The notes beneath the pieces are model-generated. The model was not told the DNA's origin. It was given only the letters and a program-made list of their open reading frames with translations, and did not search any database. A stretch of DNA of 64,000 nucleotides from Candidatus Nomurabacteria bacterium. GTDB taxonomy: Bacteria > Patescibacteriota > Minisyncoccia > Phycocordibacterales > UBA918. A program made the position numbers and the translations under genes. The stretch spans positions 957,932-1,021,931 of the forward strand of contig CP060227.1 in NCBI GenBank assembly GCA_023898525.1, in the 5' to 3' direction. Position 1 is the stretch's first letter, and every line of letters begins with the position of its first letter. Positions 42,090 through 47,410 of the stretch are shown here, piece by piece.

Positions 42090-42512
42090 ATGGCAACAAA
42101 CAAGAAGGGGGGTAATAAAGATAACGGACTAGGAGTGGCAGTAGGACTGGGAGCGGTGGCAGCGGCTGTCGGGGCGTACTTTATGTATGGTAGTAAAAAA
42201 GCGGCTAAGAACCGCAAGGCGGTAAAGAGTTGGATGTTCAAAGCAAAAGCAGATGTTTTGGAAGCGCTTGAGAATACGCAAGACATGACCAAGAAAGAGT
42301 ACGAAAAATTAATTGATACCGTTGGTACTTCATATGCCAATATTCAGAGTGCCACTAAAACAGATTTGGCTGGTTTTAAAAAAGAAATGAAAGAACACTG
42401 GCTTGAAATTGCTAAGACAGCAGCACCAAAGAAAGCTCCGGCTAAGAAAAAGCCAGCTAAAAAAGCAGCACCAAAGAAAGCTCCAGCTAAAAAAGCAGCT
42501 AAGAAGGAATAA
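42090..42512 (+). CDS. Lys/Ala-rich histone H1-like protein (AKKAAPKK repeats) with a hydrophobic N-terminus
   Basis: C-terminal KAP-type repeats. A terminator follows at 42526-42560. Confidence 0.45.
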   Translation: MATNKKGGNKDNGLGVAVGLGAVAAAVGAYFMYGSKKAAKNRKAVKSWMFKAKADVLEALENTQDMTKKEYEKLIDTVGTSYANIQSATKTDLAGFKKEMKEHWLEIAKTAAPKKAPAKKKPAKKAAPKKAPAKKAAKKE

Positions 42513-42525
42513 ATTATTAGATTTA

Positions 42526-42560
42526 AAAAGAACCGCGCCGTAGGCGCGGTTCTTTTTAAA
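42526..42560 (+). terminator. Intrinsic terminator
   Basis: aaaaagaaccgcgcc-gtag-gcgcggttctttttaaa. Confidence 0.7.
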
Positions 42561-42610
42561 TACACACCCTGTTTTTCATCCTGAATCACAGATGTTATTA
42601 TAATCTTATT

Positions 42611-43486
42611 ATGCATAGAACTTTGGGTCTAGTTACTTTTTTAGTTGTGTCCGTTTTAATGCTGTTTAATAACGACAGTGTATTACCTAATCAGCAACTG
42701 GCTTCAGCCGCTGCTTCTTTCGCTGAGCCACAATTTTGGATTGCTGAAGATGCGAAAAGAGAAATTTCAGAATTACCGGTGGCTGATTTTGCTATTTTTG
42801 ACGCTATAACTGGTGAAATCTTGGTCACTAAGTCTAAATATGGTAATCAAAAGCTTCCGATTGCTTCGGTAACTAAGCTAGTGACCGCTAGTGTAATTAA
42901 TGATGATCTTGATCTAGGAGTAATGACAACGATCACTAAGGCTGATGTCGACACTGAGGGGCGGTCGGGTAAGTTAAAGGTAGGTGAAGAATATACTTAT
43001 AGAGAGCTGCTTTTCCCGCTACTCTTGGAGTCATCAAATGACGCGGCGACAGTCTTTGAAAGAGTTACTGGTGGTGACTTAATAAGTGCTATGAATTCCT
43101 TTGCGCAAGGTCTGGGAGCGGCTAATACCTCTTTTGCAGACGCTTCTGGATTATCAAGTAGGAATGTGTCGACTGTCAGTGATTTAGCGTTAATTACTTC
43201 GTATTTATACCAAAACCAATCTCATGTTTTGGATATCACAAAACTGTCACAGTACATTGGTCCGTACACTGGGTGGGTAAATAATAATCCGGTCTTAGGA
43301 AGTGATTATGTGGGTGGCAAGCATGGCTACACCGAAGCCGCTAATCGTACCATAGTTTCTCTATTTAATGAGGATTTCACAACTGGAAAAAGAGTGGTTG
43401 GTTATGTGGTGCTTGGTAGTGATGATGTACGCTCTGATGTTGCTACTCTTCGTCAGTTTGTTGCTCAGGCGGTTAAATATGAATAA
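42611..43486 (+). CDS. Serine-type D-alanyl-D-alanine carboxypeptidase (PBP5 family)
   Basis: SxxK (ASVTKLV), SxN (ESSND) and a KTG-like motif (KHGYT). Confidence 0.75.
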   Translation: MHRTLGLVTFLVVSVLMLFNNDSVLPNQQLASAAASFAEPQFWIAEDAKREISELPVADFAIFDAITGEILVTKSKYGNQKLPIASVTKLVTASVINDDLDLGVMTTITKADVDTEGRSGKLKVGEEYTYRELLFPLLLESSNDAATVFERVTGGDLISAMNSFAQGLGAANTSFADASGLSSRNVSTVSDLALITSYLYQNQSHVLDITKLSQYIGPYTGWVNNNPVLGSDYVGGKHGYTEAANRTIVSLFNEDFTTGKRVVGYVVLGSDDVRSDVATLRQFVAQAVKYE

Positions 43487-43504
43487 TCTGTTATACTAGT
43501 CTCT

Positions 43505-44539
43505 ATGACAGAACACGGAGCGTTATATAGAAAGTACCGTCCGCAGACATTTGCCGACGTACGTGATCAGGATCACATTGTTAAAGTTTTAGAAGGAGCG
43601 ATTGAGAAGGGTGAGATACCCCACGCCTTACTTTTCTCGGGTACTCGCGGTACTGGTAAGACTACGCTGGCGCGTATATTTGCCAAAGCTATTGGTACTA
43701 AGAGCGTCGATCTCTACGAGATCGACGCTGCTAGCAATCGTGGTATCGACGACGTGCGCGAACTAAAAGAAGCGGTACATACCGTCCCGTACGAATCAAA
43801 ATACAAAATATACATTATTGACGAGGTGCACATGCTGACCAAAGAAGCATTTAACGCGCTCCTTAAGACTCTAGAGGAGCCACCAGCGCACGTGGTGTTT
43901 ATTTTAGCGACGACTGAGGAAGAAAAACTTCTCGACACTATTCTGTCTCGCTGTTTGGTTTTTCGTTTCCGCTCTCCATCGCGTGCGGTCTTGGCCGATA
44001 CGGTGACTGATGTGGCGAAGAAAGAAGGTTTCACTCTGTCCACTGAAGCGGCTGCCTTGATCGCGATTGCGGCCGACGGATCTTTTCGTGATGCTTTGGG
44101 TGTGACACAAAAGGTGATTATGGCTTCGGGAGATGAGATTGGTGACGTCGATGAGGTAGCTGAAATCATTGGCGCACCAAAGCGTGAAATTATCACTGAT
44201 TTGCTACGATCACTGCATGATAAGAATGTCGAATTGGGTCTAGAGGCGGTTGCTAAAGCAACCGCCTGCCACACGGACGTCAAACTCTTACTAAAACTTC
44301 TTCTAGAACACGTACGAGCTGTAATGTTGCTGCGTAATCGACCTCAAGATCAATCGGTCCTGGAATCGTACAATACCGATACTCAGACTTTACTTAATGG
44401 TTTTGCCAAAGAAGCGACTAATTCTCTAAACTCCCACTTACTATTGAAGCTAATTACCGCCGCTGAACAGTCCACCCGCTCACCACTACCGTATTTACCC
44501 TTGGAGATTGTGGTGGTGGAGCATTGTGAGAAGGTTTAA
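43505..44539 (+). CDS. dnaX: DNA polymerase III gamma/tau (short, 344 aa). Delta' (holB) not excluded
   Basis: Walker A GTRGTGKTT, SRC motif TILSRCLVF. Clamp-loader AAA+ fold. Confidence 0.65.
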   Translation: MTEHGALYRKYRPQTFADVRDQDHIVKVLEGAIEKGEIPHALLFSGTRGTGKTTLARIFAKAIGTKSVDLYEIDAASNRGIDDVRELKEAVHTVPYESKYKIYIIDEVHMLTKEAFNALLKTLEEPPAHVVFILATTEEEKLLDTILSRCLVFRFRSPSRAVLADTVTDVAKKEGFTLSTEAAALIAIAADGSFRDALGVTQKVIMASGDEIGDVDEVAEIIGAPKREIITDLLRSLHDKNVELGLEAVAKATACHTDVKLLLKLLLEHVRAVMLLRNRPQDQSVLESYNTDTQTLLNGFAKEATNSLNSHLLLKLITAAEQSTRSPLPYLPLEIVVVEHCEKV

Positions 44540-44548
44540 TCTTTTATT

Positions 44549-45178
44549 ATGAGAAGGGTATATATAGTTAGGCATGGATTGACTAATAGCGATGCACAGG
44601 GTCTAGTACAAACAGCTGATTCGGCTTTGTCAGAAGAGGGGATTAAACAGGCGGAGGCCCTGGCTGAACGTTTTTGTCATCTTAAGTTTGACCATCTGCT
44701 AGCCAGTGATTACAAGCGGGCGGTAGAGACAGCTGAGTATATATCCGCCAAAACTAAGAAGAAAGTTGAAACTTCAAAGTTGCTGCGAGAAATGCGTCGT
44801 CCTAGTCAGTACCAAAATAGTCCAAGTAGTTCACCCGAATACCGTGCCTATCTAAAATTAGCCGATGAAAATGTGGCGGATAAAAATTGGCGTATGGGTG
44901 ACGGTGAGAATTTTTACGACGTACTTGAAAGGATTAAAGGACTCTTTTCATTAATTGAGGCAAGTGACGGCGATTTTGTTTTAATTACACACGCTCGGAT
45001 GACAAAGTTAATTACACTTTATGTGATGATGAAAAAACAACCAGATCCCCTTGTGTGGCGGATAGTGATGAATAACGTTATAACGACAAATACCGGTATA
45101 ACATCCCTTGTGTTTAATGATAAGCATGGTCACTGGCAACTTGAGAGCTTTAATGATAAGGCACATTTTGCAGAATAA
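44549..45178 (+). CDS. Histidine phosphatase (phosphoglycerate mutase-like) family protein
   Basis: RHG motif (VYIVRHGLT). Confidence 0.65.
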   Translation: MRRVYIVRHGLTNSDAQGLVQTADSALSEEGIKQAEALAERFCHLKFDHLLASDYKRAVETAEYISAKTKKKVETSKLLREMRRPSQYQNSPSSSPEYRAYLKLADENVADKNWRMGDGENFYDVLERIKGLFSLIEASDGDFVLITHARMTKLITLYVMMKKQPDPLVWRIVMNNVITTNTGITSLVFNDKHGHWQLESFNDKAHFAE

Positions 45179-45200
45179 TAATTTAGATAATTAAGAAAAT

Positions 45201-45821
45201 ATGGATGTTTACCTTATACGCCATGGAGAGACTGATGGAAATGTCGCCAGACGACACCAGCACGACAAGACCGATATAAATGAGATCGGTACGGCGCAAA
45301 CTAAAGCGATTGCTAAAGCTATAAAGCGAATCAACCCAACTCATATTGTGACCAGTACCAATTTGCGAGCAGTGGAGACAGCGAAACTGATTATAATCAC
45401 TTGTGAACTAGACCTGATACCAGAGACCAGCACGGCCTTTGAAGAGATACGGCGACCAAGCTGGCTCATTGGCAGTAGTCATTTTAGCCTTATTTCAGCC
45501 CAGTATATGTGGCATTGGTTTTTTGATTATAAGTTGAAAGGGGAGATGGAAACCTATACCCCTTTCCTTGGACGTATTATTGAAGCTAAGCGGTATTTAG
45601 AATCATTGCCAGACGATGCGCGAGTAGTTGTAGTATCGCACTCAGTTTTTATCAATATCTTTCTTGAGCACCTTTGTGTTGAAAAAAGAATGAGTTTTTG
45701 GCGAGCGATGAAGCGTCTCTGGAAGGTATTTACCATGCCTAATACTAGTATGATTCATCTGCGTCACGTGCATTCTGAGGGTGGTTGCCACTGGGAAATT
45801 GTGTCTGATAGGGTTAAGTAA
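45201..45821 (+). CDS. Histidine phosphatase family protein (paralogue)
   Basis: RHG motif (VYLIRHGET). Confidence 0.65.
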   Translation: MDVYLIRHGETDGNVARRHQHDKTDINEIGTAQTKAIAKAIKRINPTHIVTSTNLRAVETAKLIIITCELDLIPETSTAFEEIRRPSWLIGSSHFSLISAQYMWHWFFDYKLKGEMETYTPFLGRIIEAKRYLESLPDDARVVVVSHSVFINIFLEHLCVEKRMSFWRAMKRLWKVFTMPNTSMIHLRHVHSEGGCHWEIVSDRVK

Positions 45822-45930
45822 AATAATCCTGAGTAACTAATGTAACCATAGTGCATATCCTACACTTGAAACTTACGCTCATTATGGCACTATAGTGCGA
45901 CGTGCACTATTTGTAGCACAGATTTATTTT

Positions 45931-46005
45931 TGCCGGATCGTTTGGTAGTAGGACTCCGTAAAACAGTCTCCCAGACTGTTTTACCTAGTACTGTCTATCG
46001 GTTTT
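45931..46005 (+). pseudogene. Degenerate tRNA-Gln-like copy in which hairpin H replaces the anticodon arm
   Basis: tgccggatcgtttggtagtaggac + CCGTAAAACAGTCTCCCAGACTGTTTTACCTAGT + actgtctatcggttttgattgg. The T-arm is degenerate. Confidence 0.55.
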
Positions 46006-46055
46006 GATTGGTTGAAATAAACCATGAGCAAATAATAAATCACAACAAACAACAT

Positions 46056-46075
46056 TGCCGGATCGTCTAATGGTA
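46056..46075 (+). other. 5'-half fragment (20 nt) of tRNA-Gln
   Basis: tgccggatcgtctaatggta is identical to 46141-46160. Confidence 0.7.
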
Positions 46076-46103
46076 TGTGAACATACAAACTGCGTTCGTA
46101 CGG

Positions 46104-46244
46104 AAACAAAAGAGGTATTTTAAATATTCATGTCTATCGCTGCCGGATCGTCTAATGGTAGGACTACGGTTTCTGGTACCGTCTATCGGGGTTCGAGTCC
46201 CTGTCCGGCAGCGATGGTCGGGAATTAAAATACCTCTTTTGTTT
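46104..46244. repeat. Perfect 20-bp inverted repeats bracketing the intact tRNA-Gln
   Basis: aaacaaaagaggtattttaa (46104-46123) and ttaaaatacctcttttgttt (46225-46244). Confidence 0.8.
46141..46211 (+). tRNA. tRNA-Gln(CTG)
   Basis: Manual fold: acceptor TGCCGGA/TCCGGCA, anticodon stem ACGGT/ACCGT, loop TTCTGGT, T-arm CGGGG-TTCGAGT-CCCTG. Confidence 0.8.
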
Positions 46245-46270
46245 TTCTCACTCACATTGTTTGTTGTTTT

Positions 46271-46342
46271 AGGACTCCGTAAAACAGTCTCCCAGACTTT
46301 TACCTAGTACCGTCTATCGGGGTTCGAGTCCCTGTCCGGCAG
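46271..46342 (+). pseudogene. 3' portion of a tRNA-Gln-like gene carrying hairpin H followed by an exact copy of the tRNA-Gln 3' 34 nt
   Basis: aggac + hairpin H (46279-46303) + accgtctatcggggttcgagtccctgtccggcag, identical to 46178-46211. Confidence 0.6.
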
Positions 46343-46429
46343 CAAATGTAAAAAGAATAGCTTCTACCTTATTTTTGGAAGTTTTTATATGGTCTATGTA
46401 CAAAATTATTGTGATAAACTGATATTGCT

Positions 46430-47410
46430 ATGCCAAAAAAGAAAGAGATTGGTCCAATGGTCATTTACCAAACAAAGTCTGGTGCGCTTGAATTGCGTGG
46501 GGATGCGAAGAAAGAGACTTTGTGGGCGACTCAAGCTCAGATTGCACAAGCATTTGATGTTGATGTACGTACTATAAACGAGCATATAAAAAATATTTAT
46601 AAGACTGAGGAGCTGTTTGAGAAGTCAACTATCCGGAAATTCCGGATAGTTCAAACTGAAGGGAAGCGTACGGTTAAACGTGAAATGAATCACTATAATC
46701 TAGATATGATTATTTCGGTTGGTTATCGAGTAAACAGTAAGAAGGCGACTCAATTTCGTCAATGGTCCACCAAGACACTTCGTGAACATATTGTCAAGGG
46801 TTACACTATAAATCGTAAGCGAATAGGACATAATTACGATATTTTTATGAAGGCTGTAGCGGACGTTCAGGCACTACTACCTGAACATGTCACTCTTGAC
46901 CCTAAGACAGTACTTGAACTTATTAAGGAGTTTGCTTCAACGTGGGTTTCACTTGATGCATATGACAAAGAATCTCTAGAAATCAAAGGGGTGACCAAAA
47001 AGCGTGTGACGCTTGTGGGTGCGGATTTACGCAATGCGATCAATGAGCTTAAGTACGAACTTGTGCGTAAAGGTGAGGCTGCTGATATATTTGCGTCTGA
47101 ACGTAGAGAGGGAGATGTGGAAGGTATTGTTGGAAATGTTATGCAGTCTTTTGATGGAAAGTTCGTATATTCTACAGTAGAAGAAAAAGCTGCTCATCTT
47201 CTATATTTTATGGTCAAGAATCACCCATTCATCGACGGAAATAAAAGGTCTGGTGCTTTTGCGTTTGTATGGTTTCTTAGAAAGACAGGTGTACGTGGAG
47301 CTAAAAATATAAACCCAGCAGCCCTCACAACCCTAACTCTTCTTATTGCAGAAAGTGATCCAAAGCAAAAGGATCAAATTGTTGCTTTGGTAACTCAAAT
47401 GTTGAAGTAG
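46430..47410 (+). CDS. RhuM-family N-terminal domain fused to a Fic/Doc domain
   Basis: Fic motif HPFIDGNKRSG. The N-terminal region is RhuM-like (…NHYNLDMIISVGYRVNS…). Confidence 0.75.
   Translation: MPKKKEIGPMVIYQTKSGALELRGDAKKETLWATQAQIAQAFDVDVRTINEHIKNIYKTEELFEKSTIRKFRIVQTEGKRTVKREMNHYNLDMIISVGYRVNSKKATQFRQWSTKTLREHIVKGYTINRKRIGHNYDIFMKAVADVQALLPEHVTLDPKTVLELIKEFASTWVSLDAYDKESLEIKGVTKKRVTLVGADLRNAINELKYELVRKGEAADIFASERREGDVEGIVGNVMQSFDGKFVYSTVEEKAAHLLYFMVKNHPFIDGNKRSGAFAFVWFLRKTGVRGAKNINPAALTTLTLLIAESDPKQKDQIVALVTQMLK

Follow-up and report, generated by a model that had tools for sequence, protein, structure and literature searches.

The window, the 64-kb stretch of DNA analysed here, contains an intact gene for glutamine transfer RNA (tRNA-Gln) that lies inside a second, interrupted gene of the tRNA-Gln type. 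The window sequence matches contig JACKGB010000004.1 of the metagenome-assembled genome (MAG) GCA_020632175.1, which is labelled Candidatus Nomurabacteria (Patescibacteria). The outer gene is broken between D-loop positions 20 and 21 by an insert of 195 nucleotides (nt; 46076-46270, with a 2-nt TA ambiguity), and the only open reading frames (ORFs) across this insert are spurious ones that span the tRNA. An earlier note on this DNA had placed the elements of this arrangement, and every placement was confirmed. The feature is real and conserved, goes far beyond chance, and is covered by no Rfam family or paper that we found.

All elements of the unit lie on the (+) strand. A promoter-like element at 45866-45896 (TTGAAA at 45866-45871, a 19-nt spacer and TATAGT at 45891-45896) precedes the whole tRNA-Gln unit; a scan for the sigma-70 consensus that allowed spacers of 16-18 nt overlooked it because its spacer is 19 nt long. 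It is followed by copy A (45931-46011; repeat families D1, D2 and D4), an uninterrupted tRNA-Gln-like pseudogene in which a 5' part with an altered D-loop (GGTAGTAGGAC) is succeeded by a hairpin (45958-45984), CCTAGT and a decayed T arm. This hairpin, called H or aH, has a perfect 12-bp stem and the loop CCC, and the same hairpin minus 1 nt recurs at 46279-46303; an uninterrupted degenerate version containing H is thus present, as had been claimed. The outer 5' exon, E1 (46056-46075), comprises the 5' strands of the acceptor stem and D-stem and the D-loop up to A21. It is identical to the first 20 nt of the inner tRNA (20/20; 0 matches expected in shuffles).

The insert begins with a small hairpin, hp1 (GTATG TGAA CATAC, 46073-46086), that takes in the last GTA of the D-loop. 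The 5' strand of a closing helix, P-left (ACAAAC, 46085-46090), is paired by RNAfold with P-right (GTTTGT, 46259-46264), and the ladder motif m1 (TGCGTTCGTACGG, 46091-46103) lies opposite m2 (TTCTCACTCACATT, 46245-46258). Further inward, IR-L (46104-46123) and IR-R (46225-46244) are the two strands of a 20-bp duplex; the inverted repeats are perfect, as previously described (20/20 complementary), none is expected in shuffles, and they occur nowhere else in the 64 kb. The helix extends tRNA-ward of these repeats (pairing block 46126-46147 with 46204-46225), the extension stem (46126-46140 with 46213-46225) continuing straight into the acceptor stem of the inner gene, tRNA-Gln(CUG), at 46141-46212. 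The inner tRNA is intact, with U1-A72 and G73, and CCA is not encoded. Beyond P-right, TGTTTT leads to A21 and GGAC of the outer gene, whose 3' part, E2 (46271-46343), runs from AGGAC (D-stem 3' strand) through aH (46279-46303) and CCTAGT to a copy of the inner tRNA's variable loop, T arm, acceptor 3' strand and GC. The earlier note gave this copy as 34 nt; the copy is there, but the exact run is longer, at 37 nt (46307-46343). Over 46304-46343, 39 of 40 positions match 46173-46212, the identity starting within the anticodon loop, and again 0 chance matches are expected in shuffles. The tRNA-ward extension, the closing helix and hp1 had not been noticed before.

Only the inner copy is recognised as a tRNA. 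ARAGORN called 46141-46212 as tRNA-Gln(ctg), and the Rfam tRNA model (RF00005), whose gathering score is 29, gave it 53.9 bits. In default and intron modes ARAGORN called neither copy A nor the outer gene with its two parts joined, and the Rfam model matched neither of them even at E <= 10; a relaxed ARAGORN threshold (ps80) alone yielded calls on them, which are implausible. These results agree with the claim of an intact tRNA-Gln within a split tRNA-Gln-like gene and with the claim, singled out beforehand as the test of that view, that the H-containing copies are not functional tRNAs. The outer gene of this genome keeps its acceptor stem, D arm and T arm, and is unable to decode because the 12-bp hairpin with its CCC loop replaces the anticodon arm. 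A suppressor tRNA, with H or CCTAGT serving as the anticodon loop (CCC, CUA/UUA), was considered and rejected because no anticodon stem is possible and position 33 would be C; suppressor-type ARAGORN calls arose only at the relaxed threshold.

The window was compared with stretches of other genomes, metagenomes and viral contigs, which are given L numbers. Related loci were found through the tRNA 3' end in species-representative genomes and through the 5' half lacking the following GGAC in metagenomes; extra orthologous loci were retrieved through homologues of the neighbouring histidine-phosphatase (His_Phos) genes, and L177-L199 include IMG/VR viral contigs.

The insert folds as a side hairpin and a single rod with a complete tRNA at its tip. 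From base to tip the rod consists of the closing helix, a CUCG ladder, the 20-bp perfect duplex and the 15-bp extension, and the acceptor stem of tRNA-Gln(CUG) continues it. Relative to shuffled sequences, folding of the region gave z = -5.9 and -4.7, and the leader-trailer duplex reached -45.1 kcal/mol vs. -19.9 +/- 3.8. When the rods of seven species were aligned, 94.4% of cells were paired, compared with 43-50% when the partners were slid, and 30 of the 63 pairs were altered on both sides (10.2 +/- 2.3 in shuffles; 0/500 shuffles reached 30). All four helices add to this covariation. Both-side changes were seen in four of the six pairs of the closing helix (helix 1; CTGTC/GACAG, CTTGGAC/GTCCAAG, CAGCC/GGCTG and TCATC/GATGA in other loci), in 10 of 21 pairs of the 20-bp duplex (helix 3) and in seven pairs of the extension stem (helix 4); the ladder is helix 2 of the analysis. 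An equivalent of hp1, with a different sequence, occupies the same position in every related locus.

Rod pairs of the G.U type outnumber A.C 28 to 8. The C/T-rich ladder motifs m1 and m2, in which 2-bp G-C steps alternate with pyrimidine mismatches, carry a CUCG-type motif in the same sense on both arms. Within m2, CACTCACTC is common to L133 and L138, and the ladder consensus GTTCGYWCGG is retained even in L138, whose dnaX is only 48% identical to that of the window. In 0.98 Mb of loci the motif was found solely beside tRNA-Gln 5' halves (E1). Compensatory evolution of the rod, the excess of G.U and the same-sense ladder together argue for a structure of the sense-strand RNA and not for double-stranded transposon ends. 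A general tRNA processing stem was ruled out, since leader-trailer pairing was detected at none of the other seven tRNAs of the window. In a census of 171 tRNAs of the loci the nested Gln loci ranked top, a ranking that is noisy for GC-rich genomes.

The nested architecture was found in at least 10 other Patescibacteria loci. The order E1, hp1, closing helix, ladder, long stem, tRNA-Gln, long stem, ladder, closing helix, E2 is present in L003, L017, L022, L041, L133, L138 and L124, with partial forms in L012, L019, L098 and L058, and a 5' half of the E1 type precedes the insert in all of L003, L012, L022, L041, L133, L138 and L124. 'Empty' rods with no inner tRNA occupy the same D-loop position in L056, L065, L082, L086, L066, L129, L071 and L041. 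A search for the inverted-repeat unit elsewhere, which had been proposed as a check, therefore had a divided outcome: no second unit in the 64 kb, and the same architecture in relatives, always at tRNA-Gln. The inner tRNA sequence is identical in L012 and nearly so in L003, L017, L022 and L041. In the loci examined, every inner tRNA was free of disruption, and additional insertions were confined to outer genes. In L098 the nesting is double, a 5' half and left rod arm lying upstream of a second 5' half, left rod arm and tRNA. L041 and L066 have tandem rod units, and a 25-nt side hairpin is exactly duplicated in the two units of L041.

The nested locus lies 3' of dnaX, and in several genomes also of His_Phos genes, in the window, L003, L012, L017, L022, L071 and L138. 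Orthologous loci carry a simple tRNA-Gln (L151 and L152), a simple tRNA with a structured element ending in a tRNA 3'-end copy (L148 and L156), or an upstream tRNA-Gln-like paralogue and then the tRNA (L145, L146, L147 and L149). The nested state is thus one state of a fast-changing orthologous locus, the others being the simple tRNA and the upstream paralogue with tRNA. It was found in the window, L012, L003, L017 and L022 and not in L145, L146, L148, L149, L151, L152 and L156, and dnaX identity to the window was 69-79% in nested and non-nested loci alike (loci with dnaX in the fetched stretch); L138 is nested too, at 48% dnaX identity. A motif matching the promoter-like element, CTTGAAnC...TGGCAnTATAGTG, is kept 5' of the first tRNA-Gln or tRNA-Gln-like gene in L012, L017, L021, L022, L041, L065, L145-L152 and L156, and this element probably acts as the promoter. 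In relatives it leads straight into an uninterrupted tRNA-Gln. Because the same motif precedes the first gene in nested and non-nested relatives, the outer gene is the resident one, in line with the earlier view that it is the older of the two.

The reading that we favour, although with only even confidence, is that the insert resembles an intervening sequence (IVS) of ribosomal RNA (rRNA) genes and carries a working tRNA copy that would be released by cuts of ribonuclease (RNase) III, RNase P and RNase Z. The IVS of bacterial 23S and 16S rRNA genes (Salmonella, Leptospira, Coxiella and others) are excised by RNase III and no ligation follows; rRNAs are likewise freed from their processing stems by such cuts. 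These IVS appear to be the closest analogue of the insert. Both are ORF-less stem-loops, of about 100-200 nt in rRNA, in a loop of a structural RNA gene; both are sporadic among close relatives and have no group I or II core, and such elements are frequent in reduced genomes. The insert is an extended stem-loop of this type in a loop of a stable-RNA gene, and its sporadic presence among equally related genomes, as with rRNA IVS, counts for the IVS-like reading. Retention of the rod where the outer gene is degenerate or gone also counts for it: E1 is degenerate in L017, whose rod is near that of L003, and L019 retains rod and tRNA with the outer exons gone. Short inserts without ORFs are numerous in the rRNA genes of Patescibacteria (the candidate phyla radiation, CPR); they belong to neither group I nor group II introns and have been interpreted as IVS cleaved by RNase III (PMC11270868). 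The present insert differs from rRNA IVS in its host site, which is position 20/21 of a tRNA D-loop, in having a complete tRNA gene at the tip of the stem-loop, and in its conserved ladder motif and side hairpin. In addition, RNase III cleavage is a conjecture here, and a halved tRNA may not work; the host gene is also minus its anticodon arm.

Under the IVS-like reading, 46056-46343 would be transcribed as one unit from the promoter-like element at 45866-45896; the resident tRNA-Gln-type gene in it is broken at D-loop position 20/21 by the 195-nt insert, and the inner tRNA would be the working gene. A double-strand-specific cut in the rod, of the RNase III type, would most likely free the inner tRNA, after which RNase P could process the 5' end and RNase Z the 3' end before CCA addition. 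The outer halves in the window may be the remains of a decaying gene, or may give the precursor a tRNA-like frame. The RNase III stems of 16S and 23S in rRNA operons offer a parallel, as a long leader-trailer duplex surrounds a stable RNA, is cut as a double strand and has its ends trimmed. Here, in contrast, the stem encloses a single tRNA and sits within another tRNA-like gene, and no other tRNA of the window has one.

A number of points weigh against this reading. Cleavage by RNase III, RNase P and RNase Z is assumed, and with 0/7 other window tRNAs paired, tRNA processing here does not generally rely on a rod. Conservation of E1 (20/20) and of the T arm and acceptor strand of the outer gene (37/37) exceeds what is expected of a relic, while copy A is decaying. 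Given the direct repeats that surround the rod arms (20 and 37 nt), deletion to a simple gene should be favoured, so that long persistence of the nested state hints at a function of the whole arrangement. In L133 and L138 nothing is missing from the outer exons, which are identical to the inner tRNA. The outer acceptor stem of L022 and L041 has the compensated pair U4-A69 where the inner tRNA has C4-G69, the outer exons of these two genomes are identical to each other at 72 of 73 positions though the rods have diverged, and the outer gene with its inserts removed is a valid tRNA; this compensated pair is the best single argument that an outer gene can be under selection.

These intact and compensated outer genes also speak for a doubtful but real alternative, namely that both genes are functional, the rod being a true intervening sequence and the outer halves acting as two pieces or being ligated after release of the inner tRNA. 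The product would be a second tRNA-Gln in some species and, in this one, a non-decoding tRNA-like RNA made of the acceptor, D and T arms and aH. Consistent with that, the elbow and acceptor parts of the window's outer gene are perfectly kept, including G18 and G19, and only the anticodon arm is replaced; the closing helix juxtaposes the two exon ends, and the break at 20/21 falls in the part of the D-loop that is variable in length. Hairpin aH is kept at the anticodon position in L145, L146, L147 and L017, with three different covarying stems and a C-rich loop followed by the conserved CCTAGT; the layout in L017 is that of the window's outer 3' part, with a different but covarying hairpin. Copy A is the orthologue of the upstream paralogue of L145-L147, located between promoter and tRNA. 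The idea that H and copy A are private debris of this genome is therefore not upheld.

The condition of the outer genes varies among the other loci: L133 and L138 have fully intact ones, and others are decayed or disrupted. That of L022 is intact except for a second insert in its T-loop, and that of L041 is likewise but has the anticodon AUG, which speaks against the alternative. Against it, too, many are plainly decayed (L003, L017 in E1, L124, L012, L098 and L086), and that of L003 holds a 1.2-kb insertion with two ORFs. Insertions into outer genes thus comprise the T-loop elements of L017, L022 and L041 and the insert in L003. Moreover, the insert has neither a bulge-helix-bulge motif nor a group I core, and we know of no bacterial enzyme system for the precise excision of such an insert. 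A recent event of duplication or recombination could also account for identity between outer and inner copies; the paralogues of L146 and L147 each track the tRNA of their own strain. The insertion in L003 (reverse strand, 4300-5500) is bounded by direct repeats of ~25 nt (CCGTAGGRCGGGCCTACGGGAGAC), and its ORFs encode ~208 and ~75 amino acids (the latter hydrophobic).

The earlier note had read the locus as an inserted cassette bounded by the inverted repeats. Taken as a mobile DNA cassette, it is not the best fit to the data. In this unlikely reading, a non-autonomous element resembling a miniature inverted-repeat transposable element (MITE), or one moved by a site-specific recombinase in trans, targets the tRNA-Gln D-loop and carries a spare tRNA-Gln by which the insertion is tolerated. 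Presence or absence does differ among equally related genomes, and a 2-3-nt (G)TA direct repeat stands at both insert boundaries in most loci, though it is merely 1 nt in L003 and structural constraint could also give such repeats. The D-loop of copy A, GGTA-GTA-GGAC, resembles an empty site with a footprint. Also consistent with mobility are the tandem units of L041 and L066, the double nesting of L098, the exchange of the rod base (hp1 and closing helix) between L022 and L041, whose upper rods are retained, and rod motifs shared by lineages with only 48% dnaX identity. The repeats, however, are not terminal, lying 28 and 26 nt inside the boundaries of the insert, and the extra hairpin at the left end has no partner on the right. 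They belong to one continuous covarying rod whose ladder is strand-specific and in which G.U exceeds A.C. There is one copy per locus, always at tRNA-Gln and at an orthologous site in relatives, with none elsewhere in the 64 kb (a search that covered the window and the loci). E1 always fits the acceptor variant of its own inner tRNA (GCCGG or GGGGG), for which a local duplication is a better fit than an imported gene.

The surroundings offered no machinery for mobility. Directly 5' of the tRNA-Gln unit and 3' of dnaX are two tandem His_Phos_1 paralogues (44549-45178 and 45201-45821), which are syntenic with dnaX across relatives, and a RhuM-Fic gene (46430-47410) lies on the other side of the unit. 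Scanning of the ORFs at ~40.6-59 kb of the window revealed neither an integrase nor a transposase domain, and the neighbourhoods of the loci had no transposase, integrase or homing endonuclease. No nuclease or recombinase gene was common to 18 loci, the genes that they share (dnaX, His_Phos and a peptidase) reflecting synteny only. The non-terminal repeats, the single copy in 64 kb and the lack of a transposase in the neighbourhoods are not what MITEs or insertion sequences display. The IMG/VR contigs carried no copy; searches there for the split 5'-half pattern returned only coding-sequence matches or normal tRNAs. A phage-borne cassette was rejected on these grounds and because the window form of H, with its CCC loop, had 0 viral matches.

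Repeated integration and imprecise excision of integrative elements attaching at tRNA-Gln could also have left functionless duplications of the attachment (att) type, an explanation that we regard as improbable. The 3' identity of inner and outer copies sets in within the anticodon loop and extends as far as the 3' end, and such identity is reportedly a classical mark of integrases that cross over in the anticodon loop. In relatives, copies of the tRNA 3' end lie 130-200 nt beyond the tRNA and begin in the T-loop, and in L003 such an element holds 1.2 kb with two ORFs. As in tRNA-targeting integrative elements, the 3' part of the tRNA is directly repeated from the anticodon loop, and an insertion in an essential tRNA gene survives only with a working copy supplied. 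The locus differs from those elements in that the insert brings an entire tRNA with it, in the additional duplication of the 5' half, and in that the insert is ~195 nt long with a covarying RNA structure. Although the 3' repeat is of the att type, no integrase was found beside or between the repeats, among the ORFs at ~40.6-59 kb or at any related locus. Merely 91 nt separate the direct repeats, and a 40-bp rod left as a scar would not persist across species through compensatory change.

A chimeric join of repeated tRNA sequence during assembly was considered because the source is a MAG and a short-read contig ends inside repeated tRNA sequence. An independent Logan assembly is identical over 42201-46165, a stretch that spans copy A, E1 and the left rod arm and ends 25 nt into the tRNA, and the same protein is recorded also on a 1.09-Mb contig. 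The same architecture, diverged in sequence, is present in assemblies from many unrelated studies. An artefact is accordingly refuted for practical purposes, and we give it next to no probability.

The insert was also compared with introns and with other disrupted tRNA genes. According to the prevailing view, interruptions of bacterial tRNA genes are confined to the anticodon loop and consist of group I or, rarely, group II introns. A recent survey that covered tRNA introns of the phylum found only group I introns in anticodon loops, nothing for tRNA-Gln, and as the one D-loop case a group II intron in a Bacillota genome (PMC13011429). The group I introns of Patescibacteria tRNAs share with the insert the phylum, the class of host gene and the fact of being overlooked by standard annotation; they differ in sitting in the anticodon loop, in their length of at least ~200 nt, in their P1-P9 core and self-splicing, and in matching Rfam, whereas the insert is a simple rod in the D-loop and has no Rfam match. 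A group I or II intron was rejected on account of this site and fold and because no intron family was detected in the window or 16 related loci at gathering or E-value thresholds. With both kinds of threshold, Rfam searches of the window and 26 related or viral loci returned only ordinary tRNAs and unrelated matches.

Disrupted tRNAs of archaea and algae include bulge-helix-bulge introns, some in the D-loop, split tRNAs (Nanoarchaeum and Caldivirga) and permuted tRNAs (Cyanidioschyzon). The locus resembles these in that the break lies outside the anticodon loop and the halves are juxtaposed by a long intervening or flanking helix. It differs in having a bacterial host and junctions without a bulge-helix-bulge. 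A bulge-helix-bulge intron was rejected from sequence and fold, as the 3-4-3 geometry is absent and the closing helix is separated from the two junctions by 10 nt and 7 nt, with a 14-nt hairpin intervening. We know of no splicing endonuclease in this organism and of no description of a whole tRNA gene nested in another. A literature search for nested, split, IVS-type or D-loop-interrupted tRNA genes in bacteria or Patescibacteria found no description either.

A conserved, structured D-loop insert that is not an intron would add tRNA genes to the hosts of intervening sequences of the rRNA type, all the more because its tip is a working tRNA. As an example of a disrupted or split tRNA in bacteria it would be concrete and open to testing, and it would indicate that an essential single-copy gene can tolerate disruption when a replacement copy is carried inside the insert. 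The comparison brings to light structured elements derived from tRNA-Gln that are invisible to standard annotation (rods, T-loop domains and 3'-end copies with a structured core), and tRNA counts in Patescibacteria (CPR) may be misread at this locus. A broader proposal, possible yet speculative, is that there is an undescribed class of tRNA-Gln intervening sequences in Patescibacteria, comprising the D-loop rod and a T-loop domain of ~95-130 nt and processed at the RNA level. The nested form would then be a functional two-in-one gene, the rod tip giving the normal tRNA-Gln and the outer halves forming a split or ligated second tRNA-Gln or a non-decoding RNA. If true, it would be the first bacterial counterpart of the split and multi-intron tRNAs of archaea and the first tRNA gene nested in a tRNA gene.

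Homologous elements ~95-130 nt long replace the 7-nt T-loop of tRNA-Gln-like genes in L017, L022 (3453-3545), L041, L086, L042, L146 and L149. They follow CGGGG, start with hairpin H and end in ...CCTGTACAGAATTCGTAGAA|TTCGAG, and their hairpins covary between L022 and L041. T-loop element and D-loop rod co-occur in outer genes of distant lineages. The same type of element is found in L007 and in L035, in the latter ~6.5 kb from its tRNA-Gln, with another tRNA-like 3' end (acceptor GCGAGTG/CGCTCGC, ending in GCA), which indicates that the family is not restricted to tRNA-Gln.

A further structured element lies 3' of tRNA-Gln in L014, L021, L023, L025, L030 (two in tandem), L039, L012 and L022, and also in L065, L082, L086, L133, L056, L148 and L156 (e.g., L156:3290-3420). 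A terminator-like hairpin is followed by sequence antisense to the acceptor and T arm (e.g., GCTGCCGGAC...GGGACTCGAA), a core, and the tRNA 3'-end copy (GAGTCCCTGTCCGGCAGC). The conserved core of ~100-150 nt contains a GGTTGCC-hairpin-GACAACC and a small hairpin with the loop UGUAA. The whole, for which Rfam gave no match, resembles an acceptor/T-arm minihelix whose T-loop is hugely enlarged. In L022, L082 and L133 a second copy of the right rod arm follows the tRNA 3'-end copy that closes the downstream element, which suggests repeated duplication or unequal recombination among tRNA-derived repeats.

Many metagenome contigs contain a tRNA-Gln 5' half, a short ladder-like hairpin and the antisense of the 5' half (GGAACCTT and CCATTAGAC...). 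This pattern forms a long hairpin just 5' of an intact tRNA-Gln and is sometimes in tandem. It was seen in L073, L087, L088, L099, L101, L104, L106, L119, L135, L141 and L143, and further in L050, L054/L123, L108, L111, L075/L100, L118, L122, L129 and L066.

The stem of hairpin H (AACAGTCY/RGACTGTT) is also the first helix of T-loop or 3'-end elements in L017, L022, L035, L042, L086 and L156. Their loop is always of the GGG type in the tRNA sense, compared with CCC in the window; a flip of the loop between inverted arms is a common small inversion. The GGG form is present on 23 IMG/VR contigs of unrelated taxa, some of them as 159-nt tandem arrays, with no Rfam family, annotation or literature for it. 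A literature search for the H sequence found none, and BLAST of two viral H regions against Escherichia coli genomes and GenBank phages gave no match. These occurrences suggest a wider family of modules. The hairpin AACAGTCYGGGRGACTGTT lies on L179 (10774-11110), L190, L182 and ~10 other IMG/VR contigs that are Streptococcus-like, high-GC or Bacteroides-phage-like. The 159-nt units of the viral arrays also hold a T-arm-like hairpin on the opposite strand, and in L187 an H-containing segment of ~115 nt lies between 50-nt direct repeats.

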